A DNA stretch of 32,000 nt from Promethearchaeota archaeon (GCA_048938295.1 JBHLMI010000015.1:27025-59024), one strand, 5' to 3'. Shown: positions 6,998 to 22,335, counted from the first letter of the stretch. Notes: generated from the letters alone by a model not told the origin. Made by a program: numbers and translations.

Positions 6998-8377
6998 ATG
7001 ACCCAACACATCATCGTAATCGGATGTGGCACCGCAGGTGCCGCTGCAACCCTCCAAGCCCGCAAAACCAGTCGCGATGCCACCATCACCATCATACAGG
7101 ATGAATCTCTTCCTGAATACAGTCGCTGTGGACTACCCTATACAGTCAATCGTGTAATCCCTCAAATCGAGGATATTATCATTCATCCTGAATCTTTCTA
7201 TACAGGTAATTTGGTACAGGCTGACTTGCGGCTAAACACCGAGGTCTTAGCAGTTAACCCAAAGAAGAAAACTGTGACTATCAAAACTTCTGAAGGGGAT
7301 ACCGACTCGCTTTCATATGATTCCTTAATCCTTGCAACAGGTGCACGACCCAGCACACCCCCTGTTGATGGTTTGGATGCATCACACGTTTACCGTCTTC
7401 ACACCTTCGAGGATGCAAAGCGACTCCAATCTGCGACTAAGAAAGGGAAAACAGCAGCGATCATCGGTGCAGGGCTCGTGGGGCTCGAAACAGCAGAAGC
7501 CCTTGACACCCTAGGCCTTAAGATCACAGTAATCGAATTCTTACCCCAAGTACTACCCGCCATGATTGATGACGACATGGGGGTCCTCATCCAACAACAA
7601 ATGGAAGCCAAAGGACTCACGGTCAAAATAAGCACTGCAGCAAAACAAGTCACTAAAACCCATGTAGTTGTGGCTGATCGTGAAACGAGCACTGAAGAAA
7701 AAATCCCTGCAGATATTGTTGTGGTAGCCACAGGCGTGCGTGCAAACACAGACTTAGTGAAAGATGCAGGGATTACACTTGGTGAACGGGGAGGGATTCG
7801 CATTGATAAACGGATGGCAACCAATTACCCGGATATCTATGCAGCTGGGGATTGCGCAGAACATGACGATTTGGTGACTGGCCAGAGTATTGTCTCAGGA
7901 CTTGGAAGCATTGCCCTGCGACAAGGCGAAGTTGCTGGTATCAACGCGGCAGGGGGATCTGCAGAATTACCAGGAGTAGTATTAGCTCGAACGACACACC
8001 TTTTTGGCCTCGAAATCGCAGGAGTAGGACCTACGCGTGTCGCAGCAGAAAAAGCCAATCTTCCAGTTCTTGCCGGGAAATTTAAGGGAAGTCGCACAGC
8101 CGAATATTATCCCAGCAAAGGGGATGTTACAGTAAAGCTGCTGGCAAATAAGGACACAGGAGTCTTACTTGGCGGACAAGTCATTGGTCCGTGTGCCCAC
8201 CAACGAGTAAATGTGCTAAGTGCTGCTATATCAGCAAAAATGACAGTCCGTGAGGTGGCTGACCTGGAAACCTGTTATGCTCCTCCCGTAGCCCCAATCC
8301 GTGAACCATTTACCCTAGCAGCTCAAATCCTCGCGTTGCGCTATGAACGCATGAAACAAAAGGAGCGAAAAGGTTAG
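6998..8377 (+). CDS. FAD-dependent pyridine nucleotide-disulfide oxidoreductase (CoA-disulfide reductase / NADH oxidase family)
   Basis: GCGTAG FAD loop, single redox Cys in YSRCGLPY, LILATGA, NAD-binding GAGLVGLE, IYAAGDC, C-terminal dimerisation domain with CYAPP. Confidence 0.9.
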   Translation: MTQHIIVIGCGTAGAAATLQARKTSRDATITIIQDESLPEYSRCGLPYTVNRVIPQIEDIIIHPESFYTGNLVQADLRLNTEVLAVNPKKKTVTIKTSEGDTDSLSYDSLILATGARPSTPPVDGLDASHVYRLHTFEDAKRLQSATKKGKTAAIIGAGLVGLETAEALDTLGLKITVIEFLPQVLPAMIDDDMGVLIQQQMEAKGLTVKISTAAKQVTKTHVVVADRETSTEEKIPADIVVVATGVRANTDLVKDAGITLGERGGIRIDKRMATNYPDIYAAGDCAEHDDLVTGQSIVSGLGSIALRQGEVAGINAAGGSAELPGVVLARTTHLFGLEIAGVGPTRVAAEKANLPVLAGKFKGSRTAEYYPSKGDVTVKLLANKDTGVLLGGQVIGPCAHQRVNVLSAAISAKMTVREVADLETCYAPPVAPIREPFTLAAQILALRYERMKQKERKG

Positions 8378-8389
8378 CAGGACCTTTGC

Positions 8390-8839
8390 CTAGTCGGCCT
8401 GTTTGAGCTTCTCAATAGCCAAGGCTACTCCTTGGATGATGGCCTCCGGTTTTGGCGGACAGCCTGGAACATACACATCAACTGGAATCGCAGTATCAAC
8501 CCCACCAATGATCGTATGGGTTGCTTTAATCTCTGCTCCTTTCCCGTCAACATAGATGCCACCAGTACAGGCACAAGTCCCCAATGCCACAACGGTCTTT
8601 GGAGCGAGCATTTGGTCGTATATCCTTTTGATAAATACCTTCGAATGTTTTGACACACAGCCATTCGTGATGAGAATATCTGCATGGCGAGGATTCTGCT
8701 TCCACAGGACCCCTAATCGTTCCACGTCGAATCGAGGTGTCAGCACATCCAACACCTCAATATCACAATTGTTACACCCACCAGCATGGAGTACTGCAAT
8801 CCAAGGGGATTTCCCACGAGCCCAACGCATCACACCCAC
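8390..8839 (-). CDS. Group 4 [NiFe]-hydrogenase small subunit (NuoB/HycG/MbhJ/EchC-like)
   Basis: SPW...GGCNNCDIE, TPRFDVER, PRHADIL, ALGTCACTGG, VDVYVPGCPPKPEAI. Confidence 0.93.
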   Translation of the reverse strand: MGVMRWARGKSPWIAVLHAGGCNNCDIEVLDVLTPRFDVERLGVLWKQNPRHADILITNGCVSKHSKVFIKRIYDQMLAPKTVVALGTCACTGGIYVDGKGAEIKATHTIIGGVDTAIPVDVYVPGCPPKPEAIIQGVALAIEKLKQAD

Positions 8840-8851
8840 TTCTATCCCACC

Positions 8852-9436
8852 TTACAACCTCAATTCCATAAGTTCCCGTGTTGACATTGATCCCTTTAAC
8901 ATAAAGAACCGGTACCCAAGAATCAGGAGAACCAGAACGAGTATTCCTGTTATCAGCATCAACACAGCCTCGATGACGATGTCGAATCCTGGTGTAAGTA
9001 AATGCGCAGAGTAGACTAGTATTGATAGACTGACAGCAGTTTTACGTAAATCTGTCTTTACAACTAGTCCAAAGATGCCGATGAGTATCAGAGGCCTTGC
9101 AATCCCGGACGCTGCTAAAACGTATACTGAGGTAACATAGCTAATGATGATTAGGATGACGAGTACACCAATTGAAGGGATGACCTGAAGTAATGGGGGT
9201 TCTTCTGTGTACTTGGTATACACAGTTGTAATGAATAGAGCCATAGGTAGGAGAACAATGGAGTATACAGCCAGGGGAAGTATTTCGATGAAAGCTCCAT
9301 CAAGAAAAGCACCAACGGTGAGAAGTCCGCCGAGGATTCCAAGAAGTACTGAAACGAGGCGAAACTCATTAATCTCGATAATCGCGGCGGCAATGATAAG
9401 GATAAGGAGACCAATAATCAGGTTCACGTCTCCCAC
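8852..9436 (-). CDS. HyfE-like membrane subunit (NuoJ/NuoK-like segments)
   Basis: About 6 TM segments; LILIGIFGLVVKTDLRKTAVSL resembles NuoK/HyfE; C-terminus KGSMSTRELMELRL resembles the HyfE tail; operon context. Confidence 0.65.
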   Translation of the reverse strand: MGDVNLIIGLLILIIAAAIIEINEFRLVSVLLGILGGLLTVGAFLDGAFIEILPLAVYSIVLLPMALFITTVYTKYTEEPPLLQVIPSIGVLVILIIISYVTSVYVLAASGIARPLILIGIFGLVVKTDLRKTAVSLSILVYSAHLLTPGFDIVIEAVLMLITGILVLVLLILGYRFFMLKGSMSTRELMELRL

Positions 9437-9990
9437 CTCCGCGTGTAAAATTTCTGCGTATGAGTATTCAGTTCATAACTCCGCTTTTTACGGCACTCGC
9501 CACAAAGGGTCTTATATTTGGGAAGATCTCTAGCCACTTCTTCCTTAACTGATGCATCAACGTTTGCCAGAATTCGTTCTTCAATTTTGTCTAAGTGTTT
9601 ACGTGTGGAGATTGCATCTCCACATTGGGAACATCGAACCAATTTAAATTCAATCTTGACTTCTGCATCTTTCTTGTCCGTTGTCGCAAGTTCAAACTGC
9701 TCAGTTAAGCTGACACCATCTTCGGGACAAATATCCTCACAACGACCACAAAACACACAACGTGGGTAGAAAATCCTAAGTGTCCGTGAATCCTCCTCAT
9801 CTTTCATCGAAATCGCGTTTGCTGAACAACAGGCCACACACGCTCCGCATCCGATGCAGTTTTCATCATTGAATTGGGGCAGTCCTCGAAGCCCTGGAGG
9901 CATGTGGCTGGGGGGGCCATGGGGGTACTTGGTGGTGGCTGGTTTGAAAAATGCCTTCAATGCTTCTTTTATCGCTGTGATTTTAACCAT
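9424..9990 (-). CDS. 2x[4Fe-4S] subunit (NuoI/HycF/EchF-like)
   Basis: PATTKYP, RGLP, CIGCGACVACC, CVFCGRCEDICP, plus C-terminal CSQC...CGEC. Confidence 0.92.
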   Translation of the reverse strand: MVKITAIKEALKAFFKPATTKYPHGPPSHMPPGLRGLPQFNDENCIGCGACVACCSANAISMKDEEDSRTLRIFYPRCVFCGRCEDICPEDGVSLTEQFELATTDKKDAEVKIEFKLVRCSQCGDAISTRKHLDKIEERILANVDASVKEEVARDLPKYKTLCGECRKKRSYELNTHTQKFYTRRWET

Positions 9991-9991
9991 T

Positions 9992-10981
9992 TTAAAATCC
10001 CACCAACACGCGAATTAAGGAGAAGAGGGCAAAGGCCAGGCATACAGTTAGGAACCATCTGAACACGTGATCTATCCGGTACCTTGCGCTAGCGACATGG
10101 ACAATCGTCATAAGAATAACGATGAGAAAGCACTTAGCTAGAAAGATGAGAAGGTCAAAGGGGAAGATGAAGCCTAAACCTCCACCTAGATACAGGTCGA
10201 CAAACAGAGCAGTAAAGACATAGAACCGAAACAGCCGTGCAAGTTCAAAGATGCCAAGGAGGGGTCCACCATACTCCGTTAATGGTCCTGCAAAGATTTC
10301 TTGCTCGGCTTCAGGTATGTCCCCAAAAGGACGCATCCATGATTTCGTTAATAATGCCAAGAAAAGGGCTATAGCTGCTAGTGGATAATGGAATAGGAAC
10401 CAGTTGGGTAGGATCCAAATGAAGGTGCCCTGTTGGGCTGCAACGACATCAGTGATGGATAATGAGAAACCAAAACCTCCACGTGTAAGGGCTAGCGATG
10501 GAATGAGGAGGGCAATGGCCAGTGGAAGCTCCACACTCAGAATCATCGCCACTTCGCGACTTGCCCCAATCTTCCCCCAAGTGGAGCCTGAGGCCCATCC
10601 AGCAATGACGAAGGCTAGTGAAAACATGACTGAAAAGTACAGAATGACGATAAGGTCAAAGGTTATAGGGGGAAGAATGGGAGGCCAGAATGGAGTTCCG
10701 GGCGGAATCATAAAACTCAGGATAAGAATGGCACTTAGTGCTAGCATTGGTGAGAAGATATATAGGAATTTGTTAGCTAGAGCTGGTATAAACCGTTCCT
10801 TACCGAATAATTTGATGATATCTGCAATGGGTTGATACGCGGGGGGTCCCCTTCGAGCTTGCAACCGGGCTGACAGCTTCCTGAATACCCATGCTGCTCC
10901 CCAACTGAAAAAAAACGCTAGCCCAATCGCCGCGAAATATAGGGTAATAATGAACAGATAAACAAACACAGTTTGCATCAT
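9992..10981 (-). CDS. Membrane subunit NuoH/HycD/MbhM-like
   Basis: RKLSARLQARRGPP..QPIADIIKLFGKE, GASRE, RPFGDIPEAEQE..GPLTEYGG, ARYRID. Start reassigned to ATG 10981 (ATGA overlap with upstream stop). Confidence 0.92.
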   Translation of the reverse strand: MMQTVFVYLFIITLYFAAIGLAFFFSWGAAWVFRKLSARLQARRGPPAYQPIADIIKLFGKERFIPALANKFLYIFSPMLALSAILILSFMIPPGTPFWPPILPPITFDLIVILYFSVMFSLAFVIAGWASGSTWGKIGASREVAMILSVELPLAIALLIPSLALTRGGFGFSLSITDVVAAQQGTFIWILPNWFLFHYPLAAIALFLALLTKSWMRPFGDIPEAEQEIFAGPLTEYGGPLLGIFELARLFRFYVFTALFVDLYLGGGLGFIFPFDLLIFLAKCFLIVILMTIVHVASARYRIDHVFRWFLTVCLAFALFSLIRVLVGF

Positions 10982-12819
10982 ATCCACCCCACGAAGAGCA
11001 ACGAAAGGAGTAGTAAAGCAAAGATGGCGAACCATATAACATACAAGTTCACTAAGCCTGTGTGCGTACGTCTAATCCCATTCAATAATGGTTTGAATGG
11101 ATGTGAAAACACCGTTGATGCAGGTCGCGCCTCATGCACCTTCAAATAGGGATCTTTGAGGGCACCTCCCGTAAAGGGCATGGTCTTCTCATCTGCTTCT
11201 GAGGGCTGAGTGCCACCTTTGATTCGGTAAAGAATGTAACCAACAATTAGACCAATGAAAAGTAAGGTGGCTATCAGGAATAGAAAATCTAAAAACACCC
11301 AGGCGACAGGACTTACTGGTGGGGCGGGTAAAAGGACATTGGTGGCAGGAAAAATTAGCCATACGAGGGCAAGTTGTGGAAGAATCCCGAAGAGAATGCA
11401 ACCGGCTGCCAAAATTATGGACGGGGCAACCATGCTTCTTGGAGCCGGATGAACGTCAGCATAGGCGCCAGGTGCCTGTCCAAGAAACACGGAGCATAAT
11501 AACCGAAGAAAGACAGCGAAGGTAAATGCAGACGTGAAAATGGCGATTAACGCAAAGACTGGCTGGCCAGCGGCGATACAGGCATTGTAAACCATCCATT
11601 TGCTGATAAATCCATTGAGTAGTGGAACACCGGCAATCGACAGCGATCCAATAAGCATCACGTAACCCGTAGTAGGCATCGCTCTGAGTAACCCACCTAG
11701 CTTGTTGATGTCTCGGGTCCCAGTTTCGTGCTCAATCGCCCCAGCACTAAAGAAGAGCACTGACTTGAAGAGACTATGGTTCAACAAATGGAAGATTCCT
11801 GCCGTGATACCACCAGCAGCCACAGCCAGCCATAAGGGATCTGCAAGCAGGTTATAGTAGGTAATGGCCAATCCACCAATGCCAAGTCCAAGGATCACAT
11901 AACCCATCTGGCTCACACTGTCGAAGGCGAGGAGCCGCTTCAAATCATCTTGGGCAAAGGCGATGATGACACATACAAGCATAGTGAGAACGCCCAAAGT
12001 GCAAATTAGCACCCAGAAAGTAACACTAACGAAAAACGAGTAGAACAAGAGCAGCATCAAAAATGCGGGCATCCCCGCCACCTTTATCATCATCGTGTGG
12101 AGCAGTGTGCTGATGGATGCGGGGGCAACAGTGGATGCATCGGGAAGCCAGGTGTGGATTGGGAAGGACGGTACCTTCACCAGAAATCCGAGAAAGATCA
12201 AAAATAGTGACAATTTCCCGACGAATCCTGTCAGTATTCCAGAGGTGAGGAGGAACTCGATGCTAAAGACCCCGATTCCAACAAAACCAAATCCTAGCGT
12301 TTCCTGGTAGATAAATCCAAGTCCAACGACTACGAAGACGGAAGCAAATATCTGAATGATAAGGTACTTAACTCCCCCCTCAATAGACGTTGATTTCAAA
12401 TGATGTACGATTAGGAAAGTTGAGGTGATGGTTGCCAGCTCAGCAAATACAAAGACCCAAAACAGGTTCCAACTGTATGCCATGCCCACAAGACTCCCTA
12501 TAGTCCACAGCACAAACATACTATAGGAACTTCGACGGTGCTCGATGTAGCGAATTGAGTAGATGACAACGAGGAACCCAATGAAAGTGGCAATGAGCGC
12601 GATGAGATTTGTGTAACCATTGACCGTGAAATCTAATCTAAAAACATCGGATAAGGTAATCCATAAAGGAAACGGGAGAAAATTCAAGATGACTGAAAGG
12701 AGGGCAAATCCCGTCGCAAGAATGGCAATGGCATCGTTCGCCCTCTTGACCCTCAGACCGATAAGGCCGAGGGCGGCAGCAAGGTATAAGACGATGATGA
12801 TAATTGCAGGATCAATCAT
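10978..12819 (-). CDS. Proton-translocating antiporter-like subunit (HyfB/HycC/MrpD/NuoL-N family)
   Basis: 613 aa, many TMs; FVFAEL, GGVKYL, GFLVKVPSFPIHTWLPDA, KRLLAFDSVSQMGY, FHLLNHSLFKSVLF, LGGL, PLLNGFISKW. Confidence 0.92.
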   Translation of the reverse strand: MIDPAIIIIVLYLAAALGLIGLRVKRANDAIAILATGFALLSVILNFLPFPLWITLSDVFRLDFTVNGYTNLIALIATFIGFLVVIYSIRYIEHRRSSYSMFVLWTIGSLVGMAYSWNLFWVFVFAELATITSTFLIVHHLKSTSIEGGVKYLIIQIFASVFVVVGLGFIYQETLGFGFVGIGVFSIEFLLTSGILTGFVGKLSLFLIFLGFLVKVPSFPIHTWLPDASTVAPASISTLLHTMMIKVAGMPAFLMLLLFYSFFVSVTFWVLICTLGVLTMLVCVIIAFAQDDLKRLLAFDSVSQMGYVILGLGIGGLAITYYNLLADPLWLAVAAGGITAGIFHLLNHSLFKSVLFFSAGAIEHETGTRDINKLGGLLRAMPTTGYVMLIGSLSIAGVPLLNGFISKWMVYNACIAAGQPVFALIAIFTSAFTFAVFLRLLCSVFLGQAPGAYADVHPAPRSMVAPSIILAAGCILFGILPQLALVWLIFPATNVLLPAPPVSPVAWVFLDFLFLIATLLFIGLIVGYILYRIKGGTQPSEADEKTMPFTGGALKDPYLKVHEARPASTVFSHPFKPLLNGIRRTHTGLVNLYVIWFAIFALLLLSLLFVGWI

Positions 12820-12826
12820 TGTACAC

Positions 12827-14047
12827 TCATCTGAAGGGCTTAGATAGGTCTCGCATTGTTCCGGTTCTATGGATCTGGGTTCTGTAATCGGTTACGCTAC
12901 ATATCCGATCGGTGCAGGCCATGCACGGATCGACGGATGCTACTGTGATGGGAACATCGGCTAAGGATTCTCCTGGGAGCATGAAGAGTAACGCATAATC
13001 GTTAAGGTAAGAGGGAGTTCGGACCCTGGCTCGCTCAGGTATATTGGTCCCGTTTGAAACGAGGTAGTACATTAGTTCTCCACGAGGCGCCTCAACCCGA
13101 CCCACAGCCTCTCCAACTGGGAATTCCTTTACTTCTGCGCGAATAGGTCCACCGACGGTTTTTAATTTATCCAAACACGATTGGCTAATTTTCACGGATT
13201 CTACGAGTTCGCCTAATCGAACCAGGACCATTGAAAAGATGTCACCATCCTCTGCGGTAATGATGTCAAATGGAATCTCATCATAGGCGGCGTAGGGATC
13301 ATCCTTTCGGACATCAATAGCCATTCCCGTCGCTCGTGCTACTGGGCCCACAACGCTAATTTTTCTAGCAATTTCTTTGTCGAGAGTGCCAATTCCCTTT
13401 GTTCGTGCTCGAATTCCTCCATCTTCTAGAACTGCTTTAGTTGCCGTCTCTGTTGCCTTATGAAGTACCCTCAGCTTCTCTTCGATTTTTAGAATCATAT
13501 CTTTGTCGATGTCCCTTCGAACGCCCCCAATGGTATTCATTGCATAATGTTGACGGTTTCCTGAAATCGCTTCGAGCACGTCAAGGACATGTTCTCGGTC
13601 CCGCCAAATCAACATGAACAGGGTTTTGAAACCAATAAGCTCCATCCCAACGCCAGCCCATAATAGGTGGCTGTGGATTCTTTCTAGCTCAGCGATCAAG
13701 GTACGGATATACCGCGCGCGATCTGGAAGCTCAATTCCACCGAGCATTTCAGCAGTTTGAGTATAGGCGGTTGTGTGAGCAGCACTACAAATGCCACAGA
13801 CACGTTCAAAGAGGTAAATGTTCTGATAATAACTGCGAGATTCAGCCAGCTTCATGATACCCCGATAATTATAACCAAGCTTCAAGTCTACATCCAGAAC
13901 TTTTTCGCCTTCAACTTTCAACTTGAAGTATTCCCCTTCAAGGAGCGCCGGATGAAAGGGACCCACTGGCACAACGTATTCAGGCGCTGTGACTTTATCG
14001 ATTTGCATGGGAATGGTTTCCCTTTTTGGTTTCTTTGGTGTTCGCAT
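12827..14047 (-). CDS. Group 4 (membrane-bound) [NiFe]-hydrogenase large subunit
   Basis: All four Ni-binding Cys present: L1 ERVCGICSAAH, L2 DPCMACTDR followed by a ~25-aa extension; GPFHP, GRVEAPRGE, RVRTPS. Confidence 0.95.
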   Translation of the reverse strand: MRTPKKPKRETIPMQIDKVTAPEYVVPVGPFHPALLEGEYFKLKVEGEKVLDVDLKLGYNYRGIMKLAESRSYYQNIYLFERVCGICSAAHTTAYTQTAEMLGGIELPDRARYIRTLIAELERIHSHLLWAGVGMELIGFKTLFMLIWRDREHVLDVLEAISGNRQHYAMNTIGGVRRDIDKDMILKIEEKLRVLHKATETATKAVLEDGGIRARTKGIGTLDKEIARKISVVGPVARATGMAIDVRKDDPYAAYDEIPFDIITAEDGDIFSMVLVRLGELVESVKISQSCLDKLKTVGGPIRAEVKEFPVGEAVGRVEAPRGELMYYLVSNGTNIPERARVRTPSYLNDYALLFMLPGESLADVPITVASVDPCMACTDRICSVTDYRTQIHRTGTMRDLSKPFR

Positions 14048-14479
14048 CTACCCCACCTCCTCCGACGGCCAGGCGTAGGGGAGAAACAGTTTCCGGGGAT
14101 CAGGGTGACCTTCGAATATGATCCCTAGTAGGTCCATTAGCTCCCTTTCAGCCCAATTAGCTGACCAAGCAATCTCGGTGATTGAATCGATAATAGGTTT
14201 TTTTCGTGGTAGCCGGACCTTCATAGCGAGATGTAGACCTTTTTCTTGATGGGAAAAATCAAAGTGATAGACGAGATCGAAACCGTGTAGTCCTTCATCG
14301 TTCGCTGAAATTGCAACTAATCGTCCATCCAGTTTCTCAACTAATAATCGTGCAATTGAGCGAATATGCTGCGATTTAGATCGGACAAAGACTCGTGAAT
14401 ACTTGTCAGTTTTTTCATCCTTATAGTCGTCATTAACTAAGGCGATTAATTGCCCTCGAATCTCATCCATCCGACCCAT
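14048..14479 (-). CDS. NuoC/EchD/MbhK-like subunit
   Basis: RLVAISA, LVYHF, DSITEIAWSANWAERELMDLLGIIFEGHPDPRKLFLP. Confidence 0.9.
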   Translation of the reverse strand: MGRMDEIRGQLIALVNDDYKDEKTDKYSRVFVRSKSQHIRSIARLLVEKLDGRLVAISANDEGLHGFDLVYHFDFSHQEKGLHLAMKVRLPRKKPIIDSITEIAWSANWAERELMDLLGIIFEGHPDPRKLFLPYAWPSEEVG

Positions 14480-15355
14480 TTAGTTCTCCTCCATCATAAG
14501 TTTAGCAAGAAGGGCATCGGTTTTCACGCGATGCTTGTCCACACCAATTTCCTGAGGTCGGAACCCCAGACTTAGTGCCATTAGTTCCGTGAGAGTAAGC
14601 ATTGGGATATCATAGTGTAGTCCCTGTCGTTTCAGTAGCAACTGGGCCTTCTCTAACACATCAAAACAACCAGGACAGACTGTCACCATGCAATCCACCT
14701 TGGCTTCCTGCATCTTTGCTAATTTGAACTTGGCGCGTTCTTCCATCGCTTCATCCATGGAATATAATGACAATGGAAACCCACAACAGAGCTTCTCAGC
14801 TCCATACTCTATCACCTTAACCCCTAGAGTCTCAATAATATCATCAAAGTAGGAGATGAATTTACTCGCGGGGCTTTTGTACAGTTTACAACCATATTGA
14901 ATCCCGACCTTCAGTTTCGACAATGGCTTTTTAATTGAGGCTTTTAGGAGCTGTAGACCAACATCCTCAACAATTACTTCGAGAAAATGTTTGACCTTGA
15001 CTTTGCCCTCTACACTTTTATCAATTAGCGAAAGATGTGAGTTTACCTCCATCAACAATTCTGGGTCATTCGCAATGGCTTCCCGTACCTCGTACAAAGT
15101 TTCCCAGCATCCATTACATAGCGCTAGAATATCTTCACCTAAGCATTCTGCCAGAGCAAGGTTTCGTGCAGACACATATAACCAAGTATCGTGATCCGCT
15201 AGACGAACAATTTCGGGTACTGGACAGCACGTAGCCCCTTCCATGTCGATTAATTTTATTTTCAAGAGTGGAGCAATTCGTCGTAGGGACGCCTCTGCAA
15301 ATGGCTGCATTGAAGGAATATAACAACCTAAGAAGAGTGCGTAATTTCTGATCAT
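14480..15355 (-). CDS. hdrB: Heterodisulfide reductase subunit B-like protein (two CCG domains)
   Basis: Two complete CCG motifs: C-x31-CC-x35-C-x2-C (FLGC..ATCCP..LCNGC) and C-x33-CC-x35-C-x2-C (YGC..LCCG..VCPGC); SARNLALA. Confidence 0.93.
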   Translation of the reverse strand: MIRNYALFLGCYIPSMQPFAEASLRRIAPLLKIKLIDMEGATCCPVPEIVRLADHDTWLYVSARNLALAECLGEDILALCNGCWETLYEVREAIANDPELLMEVNSHLSLIDKSVEGKVKVKHFLEVIVEDVGLQLLKASIKKPLSKLKVGIQYGCKLYKSPASKFISYFDDIIETLGVKVIEYGAEKLCCGFPLSLYSMDEAMEERAKFKLAKMQEAKVDCMVTVCPGCFDVLEKAQLLLKRQGLHYDIPMLTLTELMALSLGFRPQEIGVDKHRVKTDALLAKLMMEEN

Positions 15356-15365
15356 TTACTGGTCC

Positions 15366-15632
15366 CTATTCGTCTCTTTCTTCCCACATAGCCTTGTCAT
15401 AAAGCTCGGTGCTTTTCACTAACTCTTTTAGTTCGCGCCGTGCTTTTTCATCCTGATAGGCTGTTGGAGGTTTCCGGTTGATCCCCAGGTCCTCTCGAAT
15501 CCTTTCCCGTGTGGATGCGAGTTTTGGGACATGACCCACTCTAATGATATTAACGATTGGATTTTTGAACGATTTTGGAAGTGTCTTTACTTTCTTTCTC
15601 CAAGGATAGAGGGTGAGTTCATCGTCACTCAT
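15366..15632 (-). CDS. 88-aa protein resembling only the C-terminal region of HdrC (no Fe-S motifs)
   Basis: True start likely ATG 15632 (8-nt overlap with ferredoxin stop, GGGAG upstream). VNIIRVGHVPK..RERIREDLGINRKPPT..EKARRELKELVKST resembles the HdrC tail pattern (GH.VP...R..LGL...PPT...A..E...); directly upstream of hdrB; no Cys. Similarity judged from memory. Confidence 0.65.
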   Translation of the reverse strand: MSDDELTLYPWRKKVKTLPKSFKNPIVNIIRVGHVPKLASTRERIREDLGINRKPPTAYQDEKARRELKELVKSTELYDKAMWEERDE

Positions 15633-16101
15633 TAAGTTTTGACTCCCAGATGTTTTTGGCCTCTCGTCTTGACATGACTTGTAAAGCTCCGGTACTACAA
15701 TATTCAGCGCATCGTGGCTCTCCATCGCAGAAGTTGCATTTATTGCTGATACCCAATGACTGCTCGAAAACAGGAACAGCGATTGGGCAGGCAAAATTAC
15801 ACGATCTGCAGCCAATACAGCGCATCTGATCTATTGTAACATATCCTTTATCTGGATCCTTCATAATCGCTTTCGGTTTAGTTGGACAGGCTAGTTCACA
15901 TAGTGGATGCTCACAATGCGTGCAGTGAGCGTTAACAAAACGATTCAACCCCTCATCTTGTGGAAGCACCCTGAGATAGGCTTTTTCCAAATTGGCTTCT
16001 TCATGATGGTAAAACGAACAGGCTATCATGCAATAGTAGCAGCCAGAACACTTCTCTGAGTCATACACCAATACTTTTTGCTTTAGAAATTCATCCGACA
16101 T
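15625..16101 (-). CDS. 4x[4Fe-4S] electron-transfer protein (HycB/HydN/DmsB/CooF-like)
   Basis: 16 Cys in four groups: CSGCYYCMIAC, CTHCEHPLCELAC, CIGCRSCNFAC, CNFCDGEPRCAEYC. Start reassigned to ATG 16101. Confidence 0.9.
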   Translation of the reverse strand: MSDEFLKQKVLVYDSEKCSGCYYCMIACSFYHHEEANLEKAYLRVLPQDEGLNRFVNAHCTHCEHPLCELACPTKPKAIMKDPDKGYVTIDQMRCIGCRSCNFACPIAVPVFEQSLGISNKCNFCDGEPRCAEYCSTGALQVMSRREAKNIWESKLNE

Positions 16102-16142
16102 TCGGGTCCTTCCACGGGTAAGTCTCCATGTCGGAGTAATAC

Positions 16143-16170
16143 GTATGGCATACACCTATAAATGTATAAA
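16143..16170 (-). promoter_or_regulatory. Possible internal promoter/operator between hydA and the ferredoxin gene
   Basis: Two TTTATA hexamers on the minus strand (16157-16162, 16165-16170) and inverted repeat GTATG-G-CATAC (16143-16153) in the only large gap of the cluster. Confidence 0.4.
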
Positions 16171-16184
16171 CAGCACACACGGTT

Positions 16185-17465
16185 CTAAATCGCATGTAAG
16201 TAATGTACGGAGCAAGAAATGCACGGGTCGTAGGCTCGAATGAGCATATTGAGCTTCAATTCAGCTTCTTCTTTTGATAAATCTTGGAATGTGGCAGCAA
16301 GTACTCGAATGTCTGCTTCAATGTTGGCATAATTCATGGCGGTGGGGGTGATTACATCTGCGGATGTCACCATCCCCCTTGCATCGAAGGTATATCGATG
16401 GATGAGTACACCTCGTGGAGCTTCAACTGCAGCAGCACTCGTTCCAGCCCGGATCTCGTGTTTCGCCACATGAGGTTCTAATTTTGCCATTCTAAGCTCA
16501 TCGATGATTTCAATGGCATGTTCAAGATAATGCAGGTACTCGATGGCCTGACCGATGTTCATTTGGAAAATATCATAGCTAGGCAGTTTTAAGCTGATTT
16601 TTTGTATCATCTGTTTTGCGTTATCAGAAAGTTGATCATGTGCCACGTTCAATCGGGCGAGTGAGCCAACCACAAAGGGTGTGCCTTTGATTTCACTAAA
16701 TTTTGCATGCGCGTAGGGCACGTTTCGTTCTTTTATGATAGTTTGATATTCAGGAACAGAAGTTTGGAGTCCCTTATCTGTGACCAGTGGTCCGTCATGA
16801 ATCGGGTATTCCTTGGGGTGCTTGACCGCTAGATATTGGCTTCGCCTTACAAGTTGTGGGTCGGTGAAATTTGCCATCAATTCAATCTGTGCCTGTGCAT
16901 CAGGGATTGCAGCTTGAAGCCGTTTCTTCATCGACTCTAATTGTAGGAGTGAGGGAACATGTGTAAATCCGCCCACAACTGCACAGAGGGGGTGTGTGTG
17001 CCTTCCTCCGGCAAGTACCATAAGATCGTTTCCAAGTTTTTTGAGCTGTAATGCTCGTTTTACTTCCGTTTGATATTTCGGGAGCATTTCCACTACATTT
17101 CGGGCTCCGACATAATCCGGGAGTGCAAGAAAGTTAATATGGAGCGCGTGGCTCTCAAGCATATCTCCTAGCAACATGAGTTTGCGAAGTTGAATAGTTT
17201 GGTGACTTGTTTCGATCCGTAATGCAGCTTCCACAGCCCGTAATGCAGCTACGGCATGGGAGTGGCTGCAAATACCACAGATGCGGGACATGATGTGGGA
17301 GACTTCAGCGAAGCACTGATTTCTTAGGAATGCTTCGAATAGGCGAGTTCCTTCGGTGACACGCATTTCGACAAGTGGCTCTTTGCCCTGTTGCACCTCT
17401 ACAAAGAGGTCACCATGCCCTTCGACTCGGGCTAAATGATGGATGTCGAATTTTGCTACAACCAT
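16185..17465 (-). CDS. hydA: Group 3b [NiFe]-hydrogenase (sulfhydrogenase) large subunit alpha
   Basis: ARVEGHG, RLFEAFL, L1 RICGICSHSH, EAPRGVLIHRY, ITPTAMN, L2 IRAYDPCISCSVH. Confidence 0.96.
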   Translation of the reverse strand: MVVAKFDIHHLARVEGHGDLFVEVQQGKEPLVEMRVTEGTRLFEAFLRNQCFAEVSHIMSRICGICSHSHAVAALRAVEAALRIETSHQTIQLRKLMLLGDMLESHALHINFLALPDYVGARNVVEMLPKYQTEVKRALQLKKLGNDLMVLAGGRHTHPLCAVVGGFTHVPSLLQLESMKKRLQAAIPDAQAQIELMANFTDPQLVRRSQYLAVKHPKEYPIHDGPLVTDKGLQTSVPEYQTIIKERNVPYAHAKFSEIKGTPFVVGSLARLNVAHDQLSDNAKQMIQKISLKLPSYDIFQMNIGQAIEYLHYLEHAIEIIDELRMAKLEPHVAKHEIRAGTSAAAVEAPRGVLIHRYTFDARGMVTSADVITPTAMNYANIEADIRVLAATFQDLSKEEAELKLNMLIRAYDPCISCSVHYLHAI

Positions 17466-18247
17466 TCGATGTCTAACCTCTTTTTCAGTTGCTTCATGAA
17501 GTCTTCCATTGAAGCATTAAACATACGGAATTTCCTAACGACAACATCAAAACTCGCTCCCTTCTGTGAGAACATGTTGATCTCCGATTCCACATTAGCT
17601 TGTGGGACAGGTCCCCAACAGCCTTCACAGGGGAAGCCAACACTGGGACAACGTGCTCCACATCCAGCACGTGTTATCGGGCCTAAACAGAGTTCTCCTT
17701 CCTTCATCAGGCAGATATTTTCTTTGAGACGACATTCCACACATACAGCGTAGTTTTTCTGTGGAGGCTCTCCTCCGGTCAGTAGGGCCGTGAGGAGCTC
17801 TATGAATTCATCACCGGCAATGGGGCAACCTTGCAACTCATAATCAACCTTGACATATTCCTTCAAAGGTTGTATCTCGGGGAGTGTTCGCACATGAGAG
17901 GCATCCCCATATACACTTTGTTTGAGCTCTTCGATATTTCGACCGTTTCGAAGAGCGTTAATACCGCCAGTGGTGGCACATGCACCCAAGGCAACTAACA
18001 CCTTTGATTTTTCTCGCAGCTCCTTAAGATGGGCTAGTTCTGCATCATTTGTGACTGATCCTTCGATAAAGCAGACATCATATGGTCCCGGGTGTTTCGC
18101 AGAGCTTCCCATTCGAAATTGCACGAGGTTAATTTGCCGAAGAATATCTAAGAGCTCTTCTTCCTGATTAAGGACCTCGAGCTGGCATCCTGCACAACAG
18201 GTTAATCCGTAAAAAGCAACGACGGGTTTTGATTTCTCTGTGGGCAT
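17456..18247 (-). CDS. hydD: Group 3b hydrogenase small subunit delta
   Basis: LTCCAGCQ, IEGSV, LGACATTGG, GCP, VCVEC..CLGPITRAGCGARCP..PCEGCWG. Confidence 0.95.
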   Translation of the reverse strand: MPTEKSKPVVAFYGLTCCAGCQLEVLNQEEELLDILRQINLVQFRMGSSAKHPGPYDVCFIEGSVTNDAELAHLKELREKSKVLVALGACATTGGINALRNGRNIEELKQSVYGDASHVRTLPEIQPLKEYVKVDYELQGCPIAGDEFIELLTALLTGGEPPQKNYAVCVECRLKENICLMKEGELCLGPITRAGCGARCPSVGFPCEGCWGPVPQANVESEINMFSQKGASFDVVVRKFRMFNASMEDFMKQLKKRLDIEWL

Positions 18248-18271
18248 TTCTTGAATTCCTCCTTTGGTTCC

Positions 18272-19129
18272 TTATACTGCCCCTCGTTGTGTCTTTACTT
18301 CGGCATAACTAAACACTGGACCGTCTTGACAGACGAATTTTGACCCCACAAGACAATGGCTACAATGCCCGACACCGCATTTCATGCGACGTTCAAGGGA
18401 TAAGAAGATACGATCATCCGGTAATCCAATCTTTTCTAGTTCGCGCATTACAAACTTGTACATGATAGGTGGTCCACACACAAGCGCGTAGGTGTCTTTA
18501 GGTGAAATGTTGATACGGTCAAAAAGAATCGTGACCACGCCAATGTTTCCCGCCCAACAATGTTCATCATCCCGGTCAACGGTTGCAACATATTCGATGT
18601 CCCGTCGGTTGTCCCAAAGATATAGTTCATCTTTGAAAAGGAGCTCCTCTGGGCACCGAGCACCATACATGATTTGCAGTTTCCCGTAATCGTCACGGTT
18701 TTCAATGATGTCGAGGATTACTGGTCGCAGGGGTACGACCCCAATTCCACCACCGATGATAACGATGTTTTTCCCTTTCACGTCATCCATGGGCCATCCA
18801 TGTCCAAAGGGTCCACGGAATCCCACGATGCTATCGGGGTTTAGGTTTTGAAGAACATTGGTTAACTTACCAACTGAGCGAATACAGAGATCGAACGAAT
18901 TGGTCTTATTTGGGGATGAGCAAATGCCAAACGGGGCCTCGCCATATCCAAAAATGGACAGGAGCATAAACTGACCTGGTGTAAAGGTGAACTGCTTCTG
19001 GATCTCTGGGTTAACATACTCAAAGGTATATAGATTAGTATCGGGGGTCTGTGGCGTTATTCTCACTAGACGGGCCTGATTGTACTGGTAAGCATTTTTT
19101 TCATGGCGAAGTGAAACGGAATGGGTCAT
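18272..19129 (-). CDS. hydG: Group 3b hydrogenase gamma subunit (FAD/NAD(P)-binding, [2Fe-2S])
   Basis: FTPGQF, GEAPFGICS, FRGPFGHGWP, GGGIGVVPLR, VCGPPIM, ERRMKCGVGHCSHC..VCQDGPVF. Confidence 0.95.
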   Translation of the reverse strand: MTHSVSLRHEKNAYQYNQARLVRITPQTPDTNLYTFEYVNPEIQKQFTFTPGQFMLLSIFGYGEAPFGICSSPNKTNSFDLCIRSVGKLTNVLQNLNPDSIVGFRGPFGHGWPMDDVKGKNIVIIGGGIGVVPLRPVILDIIENRDDYGKLQIMYGARCPEELLFKDELYLWDNRRDIEYVATVDRDDEHCWAGNIGVVTILFDRINISPKDTYALVCGPPIMYKFVMRELEKIGLPDDRIFLSLERRMKCGVGHCSHCLVGSKFVCQDGPVFSYAEVKTQRGAV

Positions 19130-19133
19130 CTTG

Positions 19134-20207
19134 TTAGTTCCCTCCCTCTTGGATATCAGTCAATAATTCAATCATATCAATATCTGCGGGACAAGTTCGG
19201 GTACAGCGTCCACAGCCTACACAACCAATTTGCTCGATCTGTTCGGGCTCAATCCAGAATTTATGATAGATACGGAATCGCACACGTGACGGAATGGTTG
19301 GCCGGAAATTATGCCCTCCTGCAACGAGGGCAAAATCTACAAGTTGACAAGAATCCCAATTGCGAACACGAGAACCTTTATTTAAATCCAGTTCTACTCG
19401 GTCCTTCACATCAAAACAGAAGCAAGTGGGGCAGACCATAGTACAAGCACCACATCCAAAACACCGATTTCCCAAACGGACCCAAATCTCCCCTTCATAA
19501 CCTGCCTCCAGTTGCTCAGGAAGCTTCTTGAATTCTGAAATCACATCAGGGAAGGTTTCTTCTCGACTAGTGAGGAGCTGATTGACGCTTTTGCTTTGTT
19601 CTTTTGATGCCGATGAGAAAAGTGATTTAGTGTAATCAATCACTAACTGTCCAGTTTCAGTGAGTACATCCACATAGTAGTTATCATGGAGTTCTGTGAG
19701 CATAAGATCTGCACCTTCGGTTGACGAAAGTGTCATTGCTGACTTACAGAAACTCTCTTCGCACGGAGTAAGGCAATTCAACCCGATGATAATTCCCCGT
19801 TCACGTCGGCGGGTTCGATAAGGATCAGGATAAACTTGGGTGAGAATCTTATCGTGAAACTGAATGGCTGCTAGATCACAGGAATGAATGCCAACTATCA
19901 CAAATCGCTTCCCGTTCCAGAGGGAGATTTCTTCATTTTCTTCTAGGGGGTTAGTTATGCTGAGTTGAGGACCTAAGGAAAAGCCAACCATTTCTTCTTT
20001 GGGTGGTATGAAGTACTTCTTTGGCGGAAGAATCGTTGTATCATAATCCAACCGCAGCTGAGATCCATCACTGATTTCATCAAAGACAAACTGGGTTTTC
20101 TTCGCTACTGGCCCATAGACAGTCAGAATTTGGGTGAGTTTTTCAATAAACGAAGCAATGTCTCCTTTCTTTAAGATTAGCGGACTTATTGTACTTTCAG
20201 GAGCCAT
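19134..20207 (-). CDS. hydB: Group 3b hydrogenase beta subunit (AsrA-like, 4Fe-4S)
   Basis: TILPPKKYF, GIHSCD, CFGCGACTMVCPTCFC, RNWDSC, CVGCGRCTRTCP. Start ATG 20207 (GGTGA RBS) or GTG 20216. Confidence 0.95.
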   Translation of the reverse strand: MAPESTISPLILKKGDIASFIEKLTQILTVYGPVAKKTQFVFDEISDGSQLRLDYDTTILPPKKYFIPPKEEMVGFSLGPQLSITNPLEENEEISLWNGKRFVIVGIHSCDLAAIQFHDKILTQVYPDPYRTRRRERGIIIGLNCLTPCEESFCKSAMTLSSTEGADLMLTELHDNYYVDVLTETGQLVIDYTKSLFSSASKEQSKSVNQLLTSREETFPDVISEFKKLPEQLEAGYEGEIWVRLGNRCFGCGACTMVCPTCFCFDVKDRVELDLNKGSRVRNWDSCQLVDFALVAGGHNFRPTIPSRVRFRIYHKFWIEPEQIEQIGCVGCGRCTRTCPADIDMIELLTDIQEGGN

Positions 20208-20442
20208 AATAATCACCCATTCGTCGAGACCATTTTCTGGTAGAGAACCAATCGCTAACCCTTGTTGCGAGGTTAAAATGTCTTAGGCTAGTTCAACTTG
20301 GTGCTTTTTTGATTTTCCACACATCCTGTCATGAACCCCCACGCCTTTATAAGCAACGCTACGAGCGATAAAGAATTAATTAGGAGTTCCCTTAGAGAGG
20401 ATGACTGTAAAGGATTGATTCACCTAATATCGGGGTTATCTT

Positions 20443-22335
20443 ATGGAGGCAAACCAACAAACGGAGTTTGGAGTAAAAAAGCAACCTTCGCTTGCTGACC
20501 TGTTACACGTATCGCAGTCTGCAATCAGTCTCTATTTTGAACTTGCCGCAGAACTGTCTCCTATTCCATTGACAGAAATTCAGGAACAGCATGGCTTATC
20601 CACAAAGAAAGCGGATCAGTATCTCACTGAGCTCCAAACCTGTGGATTGGTCCGGCGTAATCCAGACGAAACCTATGAGGCTGTCGCCCCAGTTGAAGCA
20701 GTTATGATTGCTCTCACCCGAGTACGTGATCTCTTACGCCAGCTTCGAACAGATTTCCCAGAACGAGTTGAAACTGGTATCCCTGGAATCGATGCTTCGA
20801 TGAAAAAAGAAGTTGAAACACTCCCCTACCAATTAGAAAAGCTTCGGACGAATATTGACCAGAGACTAGATACTGCATTTGATGGATTTCGAAATAGAGC
20901 CGAGACCATGCAAGCATCCCCCGTTTTCGAAGTGTTTACAGATGAGCTTCGGGCTGAGCTGCTCTCAGAAGTTGATGAACGAATGATGGAAACCCGAAAT
21001 CAACTCAATGATTTCGAATCGATTGACGCGTTCATCAACGTCCTCAACAAACTGAAGAACGACGTGTTTGATATCGTCAACATCTCACTGTCAGATATGC
21101 GTGAGCAATCCTTCCGGCTCCACGAACTAGAGAGCTTCAGTGAAACCCTAATCGAGCTCTGGAATGTCACCCCTTCGATTGTCGAGGAGCACTTGGCAGA
21201 TTTTGAACAGGAAATGAGTGTCTTAGAAGCATCACTCAGCGACCTCATGGAGACTAAATACCGGTTAGGGGCTTTTAAAGGGGTCATTGAGAACTTCGCT
21301 CGAGACCACATCATGACCGCTGTAAAACGGCTCAAAGCTAACTTCCAGGTTTCTCTCACTGAGGCTATCCAAGATCATCTGCAAGAGGCTCAGGAACGCT
21401 TCGAAGAGGTTGCCAAATCAGCCCAGCAAGAGTTTGATAAATTGCGAGAACAACTAGCTGAATGGGTTCGTAACGCGTTGGATCTAGCTTTTAGTGAAGT
21501 GATTCAGCGGAATCAGAAAGCTACAACAGAACTGGCTGATCGGTTAGCTGACTTAACACTTGCTTTTCAATCCCGTTTTGCTGAAGGACTTGAAAATTCC
21601 GTGAAGCAAGTCAAACTCCAAGCTCGCGAACTTGACACCCATATAGCCAAAATTCCTGATATCGTTGACAAGCTACGAACCCAAGAGTTTACTCCACAAC
21701 TCAATCAGATGGTAACCCAAAGTGAACAGCACTTAACGAAAATCACACATGATATCCCCAAAGCTTTCTCCGAGTGGCGAACTCAATACATCAAATCCAC
21801 AAATGCACAGCTTGCTAGCGTTTTAGAGGAAGCAGAAGGACAGGTTACCCTTGCTACTCAAAGTGTGAACCAATTCTGGCGCCGATCTAAGGAATCCGAA
21901 CCCTCAACTTTTGACCTGTACCAATTTGTGGTTGGAGAAAAGGAATTTCATTCCTATATGGCCAGCCAAATCGCTCGGGCTCGAAGTCAACTATTCATCA
22001 TTCTTCCGCGAGCAATTCGAATCAAAGTCAAACTCCTAAAAATGGTTCCAAGCGATGTTCGTGTGCGCATCGTTGTAGCTGACACACCTGCTACGAAAAC
22101 GGTCCAAAGCTTACAGCGTCTAGCGGCGAAAAACTATAACTATCAGCTCCGTCACGATCCTCGTGGAGACCTTTGGGGTGTCACTCACGACAATGAAGAA
22201 ATCATCTTAGGAAATACTTCCAAGGGTACAGCAAATGTTGTCGGAATTGCGTCAAGTCATGAAGACCATGTTGACATGCTCCGCTCTATCATGGAGACGC
22301 GTTGGCTCCATGCACGCAGCCTACCATCAAAGTAG
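20443..22335 (+). CDS. TrmB-family regulator with long central coiled-coil insertion
   Basis: N-terminal wHTH (YLTELQTCGLVRR..YEAVAPVEA), about 400 aa of amphipathic helical repeats, C-terminal TrmB effector/PLD-like domain (ARARSQLFIILP, VRVRIVV, VTHDNEEIILG). Confidence 0.75.
   Translation: MEANQQTEFGVKKQPSLADLLHVSQSAISLYFELAAELSPIPLTEIQEQHGLSTKKADQYLTELQTCGLVRRNPDETYEAVAPVEAVMIALTRVRDLLRQLRTDFPERVETGIPGIDASMKKEVETLPYQLEKLRTNIDQRLDTAFDGFRNRAETMQASPVFEVFTDELRAELLSEVDERMMETRNQLNDFESIDAFINVLNKLKNDVFDIVNISLSDMREQSFRLHELESFSETLIELWNVTPSIVEEHLADFEQEMSVLEASLSDLMETKYRLGAFKGVIENFARDHIMTAVKRLKANFQVSLTEAIQDHLQEAQERFEEVAKSAQQEFDKLREQLAEWVRNALDLAFSEVIQRNQKATTELADRLADLTLAFQSRFAEGLENSVKQVKLQARELDTHIAKIPDIVDKLRTQEFTPQLNQMVTQSEQHLTKITHDIPKAFSEWRTQYIKSTNAQLASVLEEAEGQVTLATQSVNQFWRRSKESEPSTFDLYQFVVGEKEFHSYMASQIARARSQLFIILPRAIRIKVKLLKMVPSDVRVRIVVADTPATKTVQSLQRLAAKNYNYQLRHDPRGDLWGVTHDNEEIILGNTSKGTANVVGIASSHEDHVDMLRSIMETRWLHARSLPSK

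Follow-up and report, generated by a model that had tools for sequence, protein, structure and literature searches.

Group 4 hydrogenases linked to an HdrB subunit have been proposed for several archaeal lineages. The Ehd complex was first proposed for Methanomethylicia by Borrel et al. 2019 (cited in PMC9723716), and a section on 'HdrB-interacting hydrogenases' by Kohtz et al. covers Ehd, Ehe, Drh, Ehg and 'Ehd-like' complexes of Methanomethylicia, Culexarchaeia and others, for which H2:disulfide coupling with ion translocation was proposed, the disulfide in non-methanogens being unknown (PMC9723716). For Asgard archaea, a preprint by Appler et al. describes group 4l/4q MBH-like complexes 'with a peripheral heterodisulfide reductase domain' and names Hermodarchaeia (bioRxiv 10.1101/2024.07.04.601786). 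In the paper that first presented the Hermodarchaeota, hydrogenases of groups 3b, 3c and 4 and hdrABC-mvhADG are listed, but the cluster studied here is not described (PMC8163825). Here we analyse a stretch of 32,000 nt from a Promethearchaeota archaeon (GCA_048938295.1, JBHLMI010000015.1:27025-59024), which as a whole is called the window, and in it a cluster of 14 open reading frames (ORFs) for a group 3b hydrogenase followed by an HdrB-linked group 4 hydrogenase.

Judged from its genes, the cluster adds a Hermodarchaeota-like representative, of the Ehd-like type, to the energy-converting hydrogenases with a linked HdrB, a biochemically uncharacterised class that had been proposed before. 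An earlier note on this DNA, made from the sequence alone, had presented it as a candidate new system. This claim to novelty has to be given up, as the same idea and architecture have been published as Ehd, Ehe, Ehd-like, Drh and Ehg (PMC9723716) and for Asgard archaea (10.1101/2024.07.04.601786); neither this kind of complex nor its occurrence in the lineage is new to the literature. What stands of the note's interpretation is the wiring of HdrB to the group 4 enzyme, whereas its proposal of a supercomplex or internal H2 cycling with the 3b enzyme is not supported. A literature search found no paper on the juxtaposition of the 3b and the HdrB-linked hydrogenase. The reading that we favour, and consider moderately probable, is that two adjacent H2-metabolising enzymes are encoded, the second of which would be an ion-translocating, HdrB-linked group 4 hydrogenase that resembles formate hydrogenlyase (FHL) and interconverts H2 and a disulfide/dithiol pair, its substrate probably not being CoM-S-S-CoB. 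Of this reading, the genes, cofactor motifs, orthology and conserved linkage are observed, whereas assembly into a single complex, reaction direction, substrate and promoter are inferred. HdrB-bearing energy-converting hydrogenases are a proposed link between methanogen-type thiol/disulfide chemistry and complex-I-type respiration, and they are of interest for Asgard bioenergetics and for how respiration evolved. The present locus opens no new category; it holds the module intact and syntenic in an Asgard lineage without Mcr, suggests an FHL-like wiring of the peripheral arm and makes GcvH a testable substrate candidate. It is valuable mainly because it defines clearly what could be expressed, or studied structurally in a relative that is in culture.

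The genome is a metagenome-assembled genome (MAG) of 2.52 Mb in 66 contigs, 91.6% complete, and the window lies on contig C5. The closest named relatives of the locus are Candidatus Hermodarchaeota MAGs, the HdrB proteins of which are 74-88% identical. The runs listed as containing the stretch are DNA runs of sediment metagenomes only, with no RNA run among them. Families were assigned with Pfam and NCBIfam models, solved chains (PDB) were compared, and synteny was followed by a tblastn scan.

Two probable hydrogenase units in one cluster

The 14 ORFs occupy positions 8390-20216 of the minus strand in the transcription order hydB-hydG-hydD-hydA-polyferredoxin-HdrC tail-hdrB-nuoC-large subunit-antiporter-nuoH-nuoI-194-aa membrane protein-small subunit (NuoB-like). 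This one-strand arrangement of 14 genes, and their spacing, with gaps of 24 nt or less or overlaps except for one gap of 83 nt, bear out what the earlier note had claimed. The genes and the one longer spacer are as follows.

19134-20216, minus strand: hydB, beta subunit, AsrA-like Fe-S protein (PF17179 Fer4_22, E 5.8e-34; ShyB 254 bits and HydB 246 bits, both under the equivalog cut-offs)
18272-19129, minus strand: hydG, gamma subunit, FAD/NAD(P)-binding, [2Fe-2S] (NAD_binding_1, FAD_binding_6, DHODB_Fe-S_bind; PRK08345, 295 bits)
17456-18247, minus strand: hydD, group 3b small subunit (Oxidored_q6; sulfhyd_HydD, 210 bits)
16185-17465, minus strand: hydA, group 3b large subunit (NiFeSe_Hases; sulfhyd_HydA, 294 bits)
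16102-16184, minus strand: spacer of 83 nt, with TATA-like ACATTTATAGG at 16155-16165 and GTGGAAGGA directly 5' of the ATG
15625-16101, minus strand: HycB-type polyferredoxin with four [4Fe-4S] motifs (Fer4_11; 16 Cys in the four motifs)
15366-15632, minus strand: 'mini-HdrC' of 88 aa, no Cys (TIGR03290 positions 79-142 of 144, E 2.5e-6)
14480-15355, minus strand: HdrB-family subunit with two CCG domains, i.e., two non-cubane [4Fe-4S] cluster sites (PF02754 twice; TIGR03288, 230 bits)
14048-14479, minus strand: NuoC-like subunit (Complex1_30kDa, E 1.1e-24)
12827-14047, minus strand: NuoD-like group 4 large subunit (Complex1_49kDa and NiFeSe_Hases)
10978-12819, minus strand: single antiporter-like membrane subunit of the NuoL/MrpA-D/HyfB type (Proton_antipo_M, Proton_antipo_N)
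9992-11035, minus strand: NuoH-like membrane subunit (PF00146, E 3.4e-62)
9424-9990, minus strand: NuoI/HycF-like 2x[4Fe-4S] subunit with a CxxC...CxxC C-terminal extension (Hydrogenase-4 subunit H model, 134 bits)
8852-9436, minus strand: 194-aa multi-helix membrane protein, no family assigned
8390-8839, minus strand: NuoB-like group 4 small subunit (Oxidored_q6; nuoB_fam, 131 bits)

The Pfam and NCBIfam assignments agree with the gene labels of the earlier note in all cases but one, as its 'hyfE-like' label for the 194-aa protein matches nothing. Its statement that both large subunits keep all four Ni-binding Cys is borne out by an L1 and an L2 motif in each of them: RICGICSHSH (residue 61) and DPCISCSVH (residue 413) in HydA, and RVCGICSAAH and DPCMACTDR in the group 4 subunit. 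Family searches of the window ORFs with Pfam and NCBIfam likewise agree with it that none encodes HdrA, HdrD, formate dehydrogenase or CODH.

The putative HdrB-linked group 4 hydrogenase

The second unit comprises ten genes, of which the polyferredoxin gene is the first and that of the small subunit the last. It has the features of a group 4 enzyme, namely a NuoD-like large subunit with the four Ni-binding Cys together with NuoB-, NuoC-, NuoI-, NuoH- and antiporter-like subunits. The nearest solved chains of the large subunit are MbhL (6cfw_L) and HycE (7z0s_E). The NuoI-like subunit aligns with HycF (7z0s_F) over residues 5-170, that is, over the full length and including its Cys-bearing C-terminal extension, and the best solved relatives of the polyferredoxin are 8c0z_C, 7qv7_A (HycB3) and 7z0s_B (HycB). 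A GTG at 16155 would be an alternative start of the polyferredoxin gene; alignments of orthologues begin near the ATG instead. The NuoH-like subunit probably starts a few codons later than listed, as its orthologues are called at 324-330 aa.

For the 194-aa membrane protein, no match was found in Pfam, NCBIfam or solved PDB chains, and an AlphaFold2 model based on 8 orthologues was too poor for a fold search (pLDDT 52). The protein is kept in all type A clusters (see below); its neighbours in a language-model comparison, the NuoK and MbhD families, are to be taken as a lead only. Downstream of DPCMACTDR the large subunit carries a C-terminal extension of 25 residues (coded at 12827-12904, minus strand), which by analogy with HycE suggests processing by a C-terminal endopeptidase during Ni insertion. 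Two other identities were considered for unit 2 and dismissed: an MBS/MBX sulfane reductase, since all four Ni-binding Cys are present in the NuoD-like subunit, and a formate hydrogenlyase proper, since the FdhF module is absent and there is no molybdopterin enzyme in the window.

The 88-aa protein matches the C-terminal tail of HdrC only, as the label 'mini-HdrC' in the earlier note had rightly conveyed. It aligns with the solved HdrC chains 8rvv_C and 5odc_C only at residues ~110-170, and with zero Cys it lacks both [4Fe-4S] motifs of canonical HdrC. Its gene precedes hdrB in every related cluster. HdrB itself is ~40% identical to the solved 5odc_B over the full length (200 bits), and all ten motif Cys are aligned. 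Its TIGR03288 score of 230 bits stays under the equivalog cut-off of 345, and the second-best model is the SdhE membrane anchor. After the second CCG, the hydrogenase-linked HdrB clade has the signature CCG[FY]P[LK] (CCGFPLSLY in the window protein), in place of which CCGAGGG is found in the genome's canonical HdrB and in methanogen HdrB. A canonical HdrABC was ruled out for the window set by these features: no HdrA in the window, an HdrC without Cys, and an HdrB under the cut-off and without CCGAGGG. Canonical sets do exist elsewhere in the genome, where the earlier note had asked for hdrA to be looked for: HdrA was found on two contigs, each time with its own canonical HdrBC. On contig C51, HdrC-HdrB is followed a few genes downstream by HdrA-MvhD-MvhG-MvhA, and on C23 an HdrA/MvhD fusion occurs with HdrC and HdrB. 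An apparent in-frame TGA in the HdrB gene of a sister genus was considered as a selenocysteine codon and turned out to be the stop codon at the gene end.

These HdrB features bear on the possibility that the subunit handles no disulfide at all and, like the CCG-domain proteins LutA, GlpC, SdhE or those of the TfrB type, serves a different substrate, for instance a sulfur species or fumarate/succinate. The low TIGR03288 score with SdhE as second-best model, the altered motif after the second CCG and the succinate dehydrogenase genes beside Ehe clusters all point that way. However, the ten cluster Cys align with those of solved HdrB at ~40% full-length identity, the HdrC tail has been retained, and no SdhA or SdhB gene occurs in or near type A clusters, so that we regard this explanation as highly improbable.

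Among described systems, Ehd, Ehe and Ehd-like clusters are similar to the window in combining group 4 genes with HdrB, an HdrC remnant, a polyferredoxin and an antiporter-like subunit. Their HdrB proteins and large subunits are orthologous to those of the window, with 48-56% and 50-64% identity, respectively, and the large subunits fall in one clade. The window differs from them in its host, an Asgard archaeon without Mcr, in the 3b hydrogenase in tandem upstream, and in having no adjacent GcvH, SdhA, CdhA or HdrA2B2C2. Also, NuoC and the large subunit are separate in the window but fused in several type B clusters. The Asgard 4l/4q MBH-like complexes occur in the same phylum and are likewise proposed to bear an Hdr module on the peripheral arm; the accessible preprint text makes no mention of a split HdrC, a HycB-type ferredoxin or a 3b neighbour, all of which are found in the window. 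FHL-1 of E. coli (7z0s) shares the HycE-, HycG-, HycF- and HycB-like chain and a minimal membrane arm with one antiporter-like and one NuoH-like subunit. In contrast to FHL-1, the window encodes no FdhF and would have HdrB and the HdrC tail at the position of the substrate module; it also has the additional 194-aa membrane protein, and its NuoC is not fused to the large subunit. With the MvhADG-HdrABC complex of methanogens (5odc), the window set shares the HdrB fold with ten Cys, the HdrC C-terminal tail and H2 as redox partner. Unlike that complex it has no HdrA, hence no flavin-based bifurcation, its HdrC remnant lacks the Fe-S domain, its hydrogenase is of the membrane-bound group 4 and not of the soluble group 3c, and the canonical HdrABC sets lie elsewhere in the genome.

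Conservation of the linkage between HdrB and group 4 genes

All 14 genes and a convergent gene of the CoA-disulfide reductase (CoADR) family are kept in the same order in six further loci (L004, L005, L006, L018, L025 and L043); one more (L007) is truncated. The core of ten genes also occurs by itself. Two metagenome contigs, one of them from the Guaymas Basin (L026; the other is L027), have it without 3b genes, as does a sister genus of the same family (L042), where 6 kb upstream are free of hyd genes. A Heimdallarchaeota MAG has the core as well, in a locus (L008) that ends just upstream of it. In a Methanomethylicia genome (L016) the order of the core is identical, with a large subunit 64% identical to that of the window, and upstream of it, in divergent orientation, there is a distantly related 3b operon (33-42% identity).

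Four gene orders can be distinguished. Type A is the order of the window and is shared by the Hermodarchaeota-like loci, the Heimdallarchaeota MAG, the two metagenome contigs and the one Methanomethylicia genome. Type B, which begins with gcvH, polyferredoxin, tail, hdrB and small subunit, is the Ehe/Ehd arrangement of Culexarchaeia and Methanomethylicia. In type C, from another Asgard family, the order is nuoH, nuoI, small subunit, polyferredoxin, tail, hdrB, nuoC, large subunit. Type D, from two Thermoproteota genomes, has tail, hdrB, antiporter, nuoH, nuoC, large subunit, nuoI, small subunit and polyferredoxin, with a divergent gcvH. None of the type B, C and D clusters has 3b genes beside the core. 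In the neighbourhood check proposed in the earlier note, hdrB thus stays among the genes of a group 4 enzyme in Asgard archaea and Thermoproteota alike, in all four of these orders. Because polyferredoxin, HdrC tail and HdrB are kept inside group 4 clusters through these rearrangements and in two phyla, they would be parts of one complex, and this is the strongest available evidence for it.

In the large-subunit phylogeny that the note had also proposed, the group 4 subunit of the window falls in one clade with those of 20 other HdrB-linked clusters (21 in all; support 92/91), and the genome's other group 4/Nuo-like paralogues fall outside. Distribution of the class is patchy: an HdrB orthologue (E <= 1e-75) was found in 11 of the 400 Asgard genomes searched, 7 of them among the 15 genomes of the window's genus, and a large subunit at least 60% identical was found in 3 of 401 sampled Thermoproteota.

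In two type C loci from Asgard family f5 (L040 and L041; genomes G007 and G006), no antiporter-like gene was detected within the 11-20 kb fetched. By analogy with the Drh complex of Methanocellales, type C may be a non-pumping variant.

The group 3b hydrogenase as an upstream neighbour

Unit 1 shows the features of group 3b, as a large subunit with L1 and L2 motifs, a small subunit, an AsrA-like beta and an AsrB-like gamma subunit are encoded in the same operon. The best NCBIfam models for the large subunit are HydA (294 bits) and ShyA (284 bits), as compared to 160 bits for VhuA, all under the equivalog cut-offs. By this gene content, hydBGDA would be a soluble, NAD(P)-linked, bidirectional group 3b hydrogenase.

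The spacer between the end of hydA (16185) and the ATG of the polyferredoxin gene (16101) contains ACATTTATAGG, which occurs only once in the window, and GTGGAAGGA. In an alignment both are unchanged in 7 of 7 related loci, and the surrounding bases vary. They are likely to represent an internal promoter with an archaeal TATA box and the ribosome-binding site of the 10-gene unit. On inspection for an oligo-T terminator, no obvious one was seen in the 83 nt.

The earlier note had suggested that the 3b enzyme and the HdrB-linked enzyme form one system, possibly as a supercomplex or through internal H2 cycling; in an obligate form of such cycling, NAD(P)H would be converted to H2 by the 3b enzyme and H2 then used for disulfide reduction by the ion-pumping membrane complex. 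A tandem, same-strand arrangement in at least six related genomes or contigs, an independent, divergent 3b operon beside the type A core of L016, and the lack of an obvious terminator in the spacer would fit such a system. However, no 3b genes accompany the core in the sister genus, in the two metagenome contigs and in all type B, C and D clusters, and a conserved TATA-like element separates the units. In addition, with three further group 3 and several group 4/Nuo-like loci in the genome, it is not improbable that two hydrogenases come to lie side by side. A single system therefore appears distinctly unlikely to us. Adjacency of 3b genes to the core is a tandem only in the window's genus and is divergent in the one Methanomethylicia genome; given the stand-alone cores and the spacer element, the 3b enzyme would be a separate, co-located hydrogenase and is best read as a lineage-specific upstream neighbour.

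Proposed mechanism and direction of the reaction

Unit 2 would be expressed as an operon-like block of 10 genes, probably from a promoter of its own. For its peripheral arm we propose the order NiFe large subunit, NuoB-like small subunit, HycF-like 2x[4Fe-4S] subunit and HycB-like 4x[4Fe-4S] ferredoxin, with HdrB in the place of FdhF. This FHL-like model is based on the full-length similarity of the NuoI-like subunit to HycF, on the HycB type of the polyferredoxin, and on MbhL and HycE being closest to the large subunit. It agrees with the suggestion in the earlier note that HdrB is a module of the group 4 unit, wired most plausibly via the polyferredoxin. The ferredoxin domain of HdrC would have been replaced by the HycB-type protein and only the HdrB-embracing tail retained; the Cys-free tail probably clamps HdrB to the ferredoxin. 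About seven cubane clusters could then carry electrons from the NiFe site to the non-cubane clusters of HdrB or back. A complex prediction for HycF-like subunit, polyferredoxin, HdrC tail and HdrB gave a score of 0.82 with polyferredoxin as partner, as compared to 0.83 for a control in which HdrB was replaced, and it is not evidence either way.

The two non-cubane clusters of HdrB would be the place where H2 is interconverted with a disulfide/dithiol pair, in a reaction coupled to ion translocation. The predicted membrane arm is minimal, with one antiporter-like subunit, one NuoH-like subunit and one small membrane protein, so that one may reasonably guess at a stoichiometry of about one ion for each electron pair. 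By textbook values, the potential of H2 is about -414 mV and those of disulfides are about -140 to -290 mV. With these potentials, reduction of a disulfide by H2 would be the exergonic, energy-conserving direction and could pump ions, and the reverse reaction, from thiol to H2, would be feasible only at very low H2.

That reverse reaction is what an alternative explanation has as the main one. In this case the complex would be a 'dithiol hydrogenlyase' that mainly evolves H2 and reoxidises a thiol carrier, such as dihydrolipoyl-GcvH or an HdrABC-made dithiol, at the low H2 of syntrophic sediments, its membrane arm being neutral or consuming the ion gradient. It draws on the similarity to FHL, whose attached module donates the electrons, on the nearest solved large subunits, MbhL and HycE, which come from H2-evolving enzymes, and on the association with GcvH in relatives. 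Also, published models present Asgard archaea as H2-producing fermenters (10.1101/2024.07.04.601786). Against it, thiol oxidation to H2 is endergonic under standard conditions, and the sequence itself does not tell which way the reaction runs. We consider a mainly H2-evolving enzyme rather unlikely and retain the ion-translocating, H2- and disulfide-converting hydrogenase as the preferred reading.

Candidate substrates

A search for McrA in the 91.6% complete genome did not find it. A methanogenic heterodisulfide cycle is therefore unlikely, and CoM-S-S-CoB is probably not the substrate. The CCG[FY]P[LK] signature of the hydrogenase-linked HdrB clade, where the genome's canonical HdrB has CCGAGGG, is a further point on the substrate side.

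The leading candidate is the lipoyl group of GcvH, as gcvH directly adjoins every Thermoproteota cluster of types B and D (L010-L014, L022, L028, L029, L044-L047, L060 and L061; for example L046:8842-9237), and genes for a lipoate-protein ligase and for radical-SAM proteins lie downstream of the cluster in L046 and L047. A parallel can be seen in the lipoate-binding proteins of the sulfur-oxidising Hdr-like system (PMC6067878). A CoA-type disulfide or persulfide is a second, weak candidate; here the clue would be the CoADR-family gene, which is the weaker one because it is syntenic among close relatives only.

Going one step further, the hydrogenase-linked HdrB clade might act on GcvH-bound lipoate, and the complex would then be an ion-translocating H2:lipoyl-protein oxidoreductase that is co-expressed with a 3b hydrogenase in this genus. 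Unlikely as we hold this to be, it would link glycine cleavage or a reductive glycine route directly to chemiosmosis, and NAD(P)H, H2 and the dithiol pool would be balanced by internal H2 turnover.

Several points weigh against the favoured reading and its leading substrate. Type A clusters have no gcvH nearby. The sole GcvH of the genome is encoded on contig C51 (L023:5807-6199, minus strand), ~2 kb from the canonical HdrC-HdrB, and GcvT and GcvP are present on other contigs, so that GcvH may serve glycine cleavage only. The large-subunit tree covers the HdrB-linked clusters and the genome's own paralogues, with no HydDB reference subgroups among them. As for the separation of the two units, the promoter is proposed from a conserved motif, and read-through from hydA would still co-express both; also, a true functional tie might lie behind the 3b juxtapositions in two distant lineages, one a tandem (in the window) and the other divergent (in L016). 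To our knowledge, no member of the HdrB-linked group 4 class has been purified. On C51, GcvH adjoins an STT3 oligosaccharyl transferase, and pyruvate:ferredoxin oxidoreductase and HdrA-MvhD-MvhG-MvhA are found downstream.

Flanking genes and further hydrogenase loci

Two genes flank the cluster directly.

6998-8377, plus strand: flavoprotein of the CoA-disulfide reductase/NADH oxidase family, convergent with the cluster (TIGR03385, 315 bits; cut-off 579)
20443-22335, plus strand: 630-aa protein, divergent from hydB, with a weak N-terminal match to a TrmB-type helix-turn-helix (PF01978, E 0.0035, under the cut-off)

The CoADR-family gene is syntenic in the six Hermodarchaeota-like loci only and is absent after the core in the Guaymas Basin contig; its link to the cluster is uncertain. 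Pyrococcus has the soluble sulfhydrogenases SHI and SHII, the membrane-bound hydrogenase MBH and the CoA-dependent NAD(P)H sulfur reductase NSR, and three like enzyme types (3b, MBH-like and a CoADR/NSR-family flavoprotein) stand side by side in the window. The window complex differs from Pyrococcus MBH in carrying HdrB and in having one antiporter-like subunit rather than a Mrp-type module.

The 630-aa protein, which has a long helical middle part and a counterpart of 631 aa at the equivalent place in L025, may be a regulator of the hydrogenase genes. Divergent from the CoADR-family gene, with 35 nt between them, lies an ORF of 566 aa (5262-6962, minus strand) without a Pfam or NCBIfam match, and at the equivalent place L025 has a gene of 530 aa, also without a family.

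For a genome of 2.5 Mb, the hydrogenase complement is unusually large: besides the window cluster there are three loci of group 3 and at least four of the group 4/Nuo-like (complex-I-like) kind. They are spread over contigs C41, C2, C22, C17, C36 and C66, and one of the group 4/Nuo-like loci has five antiporter-like genes.

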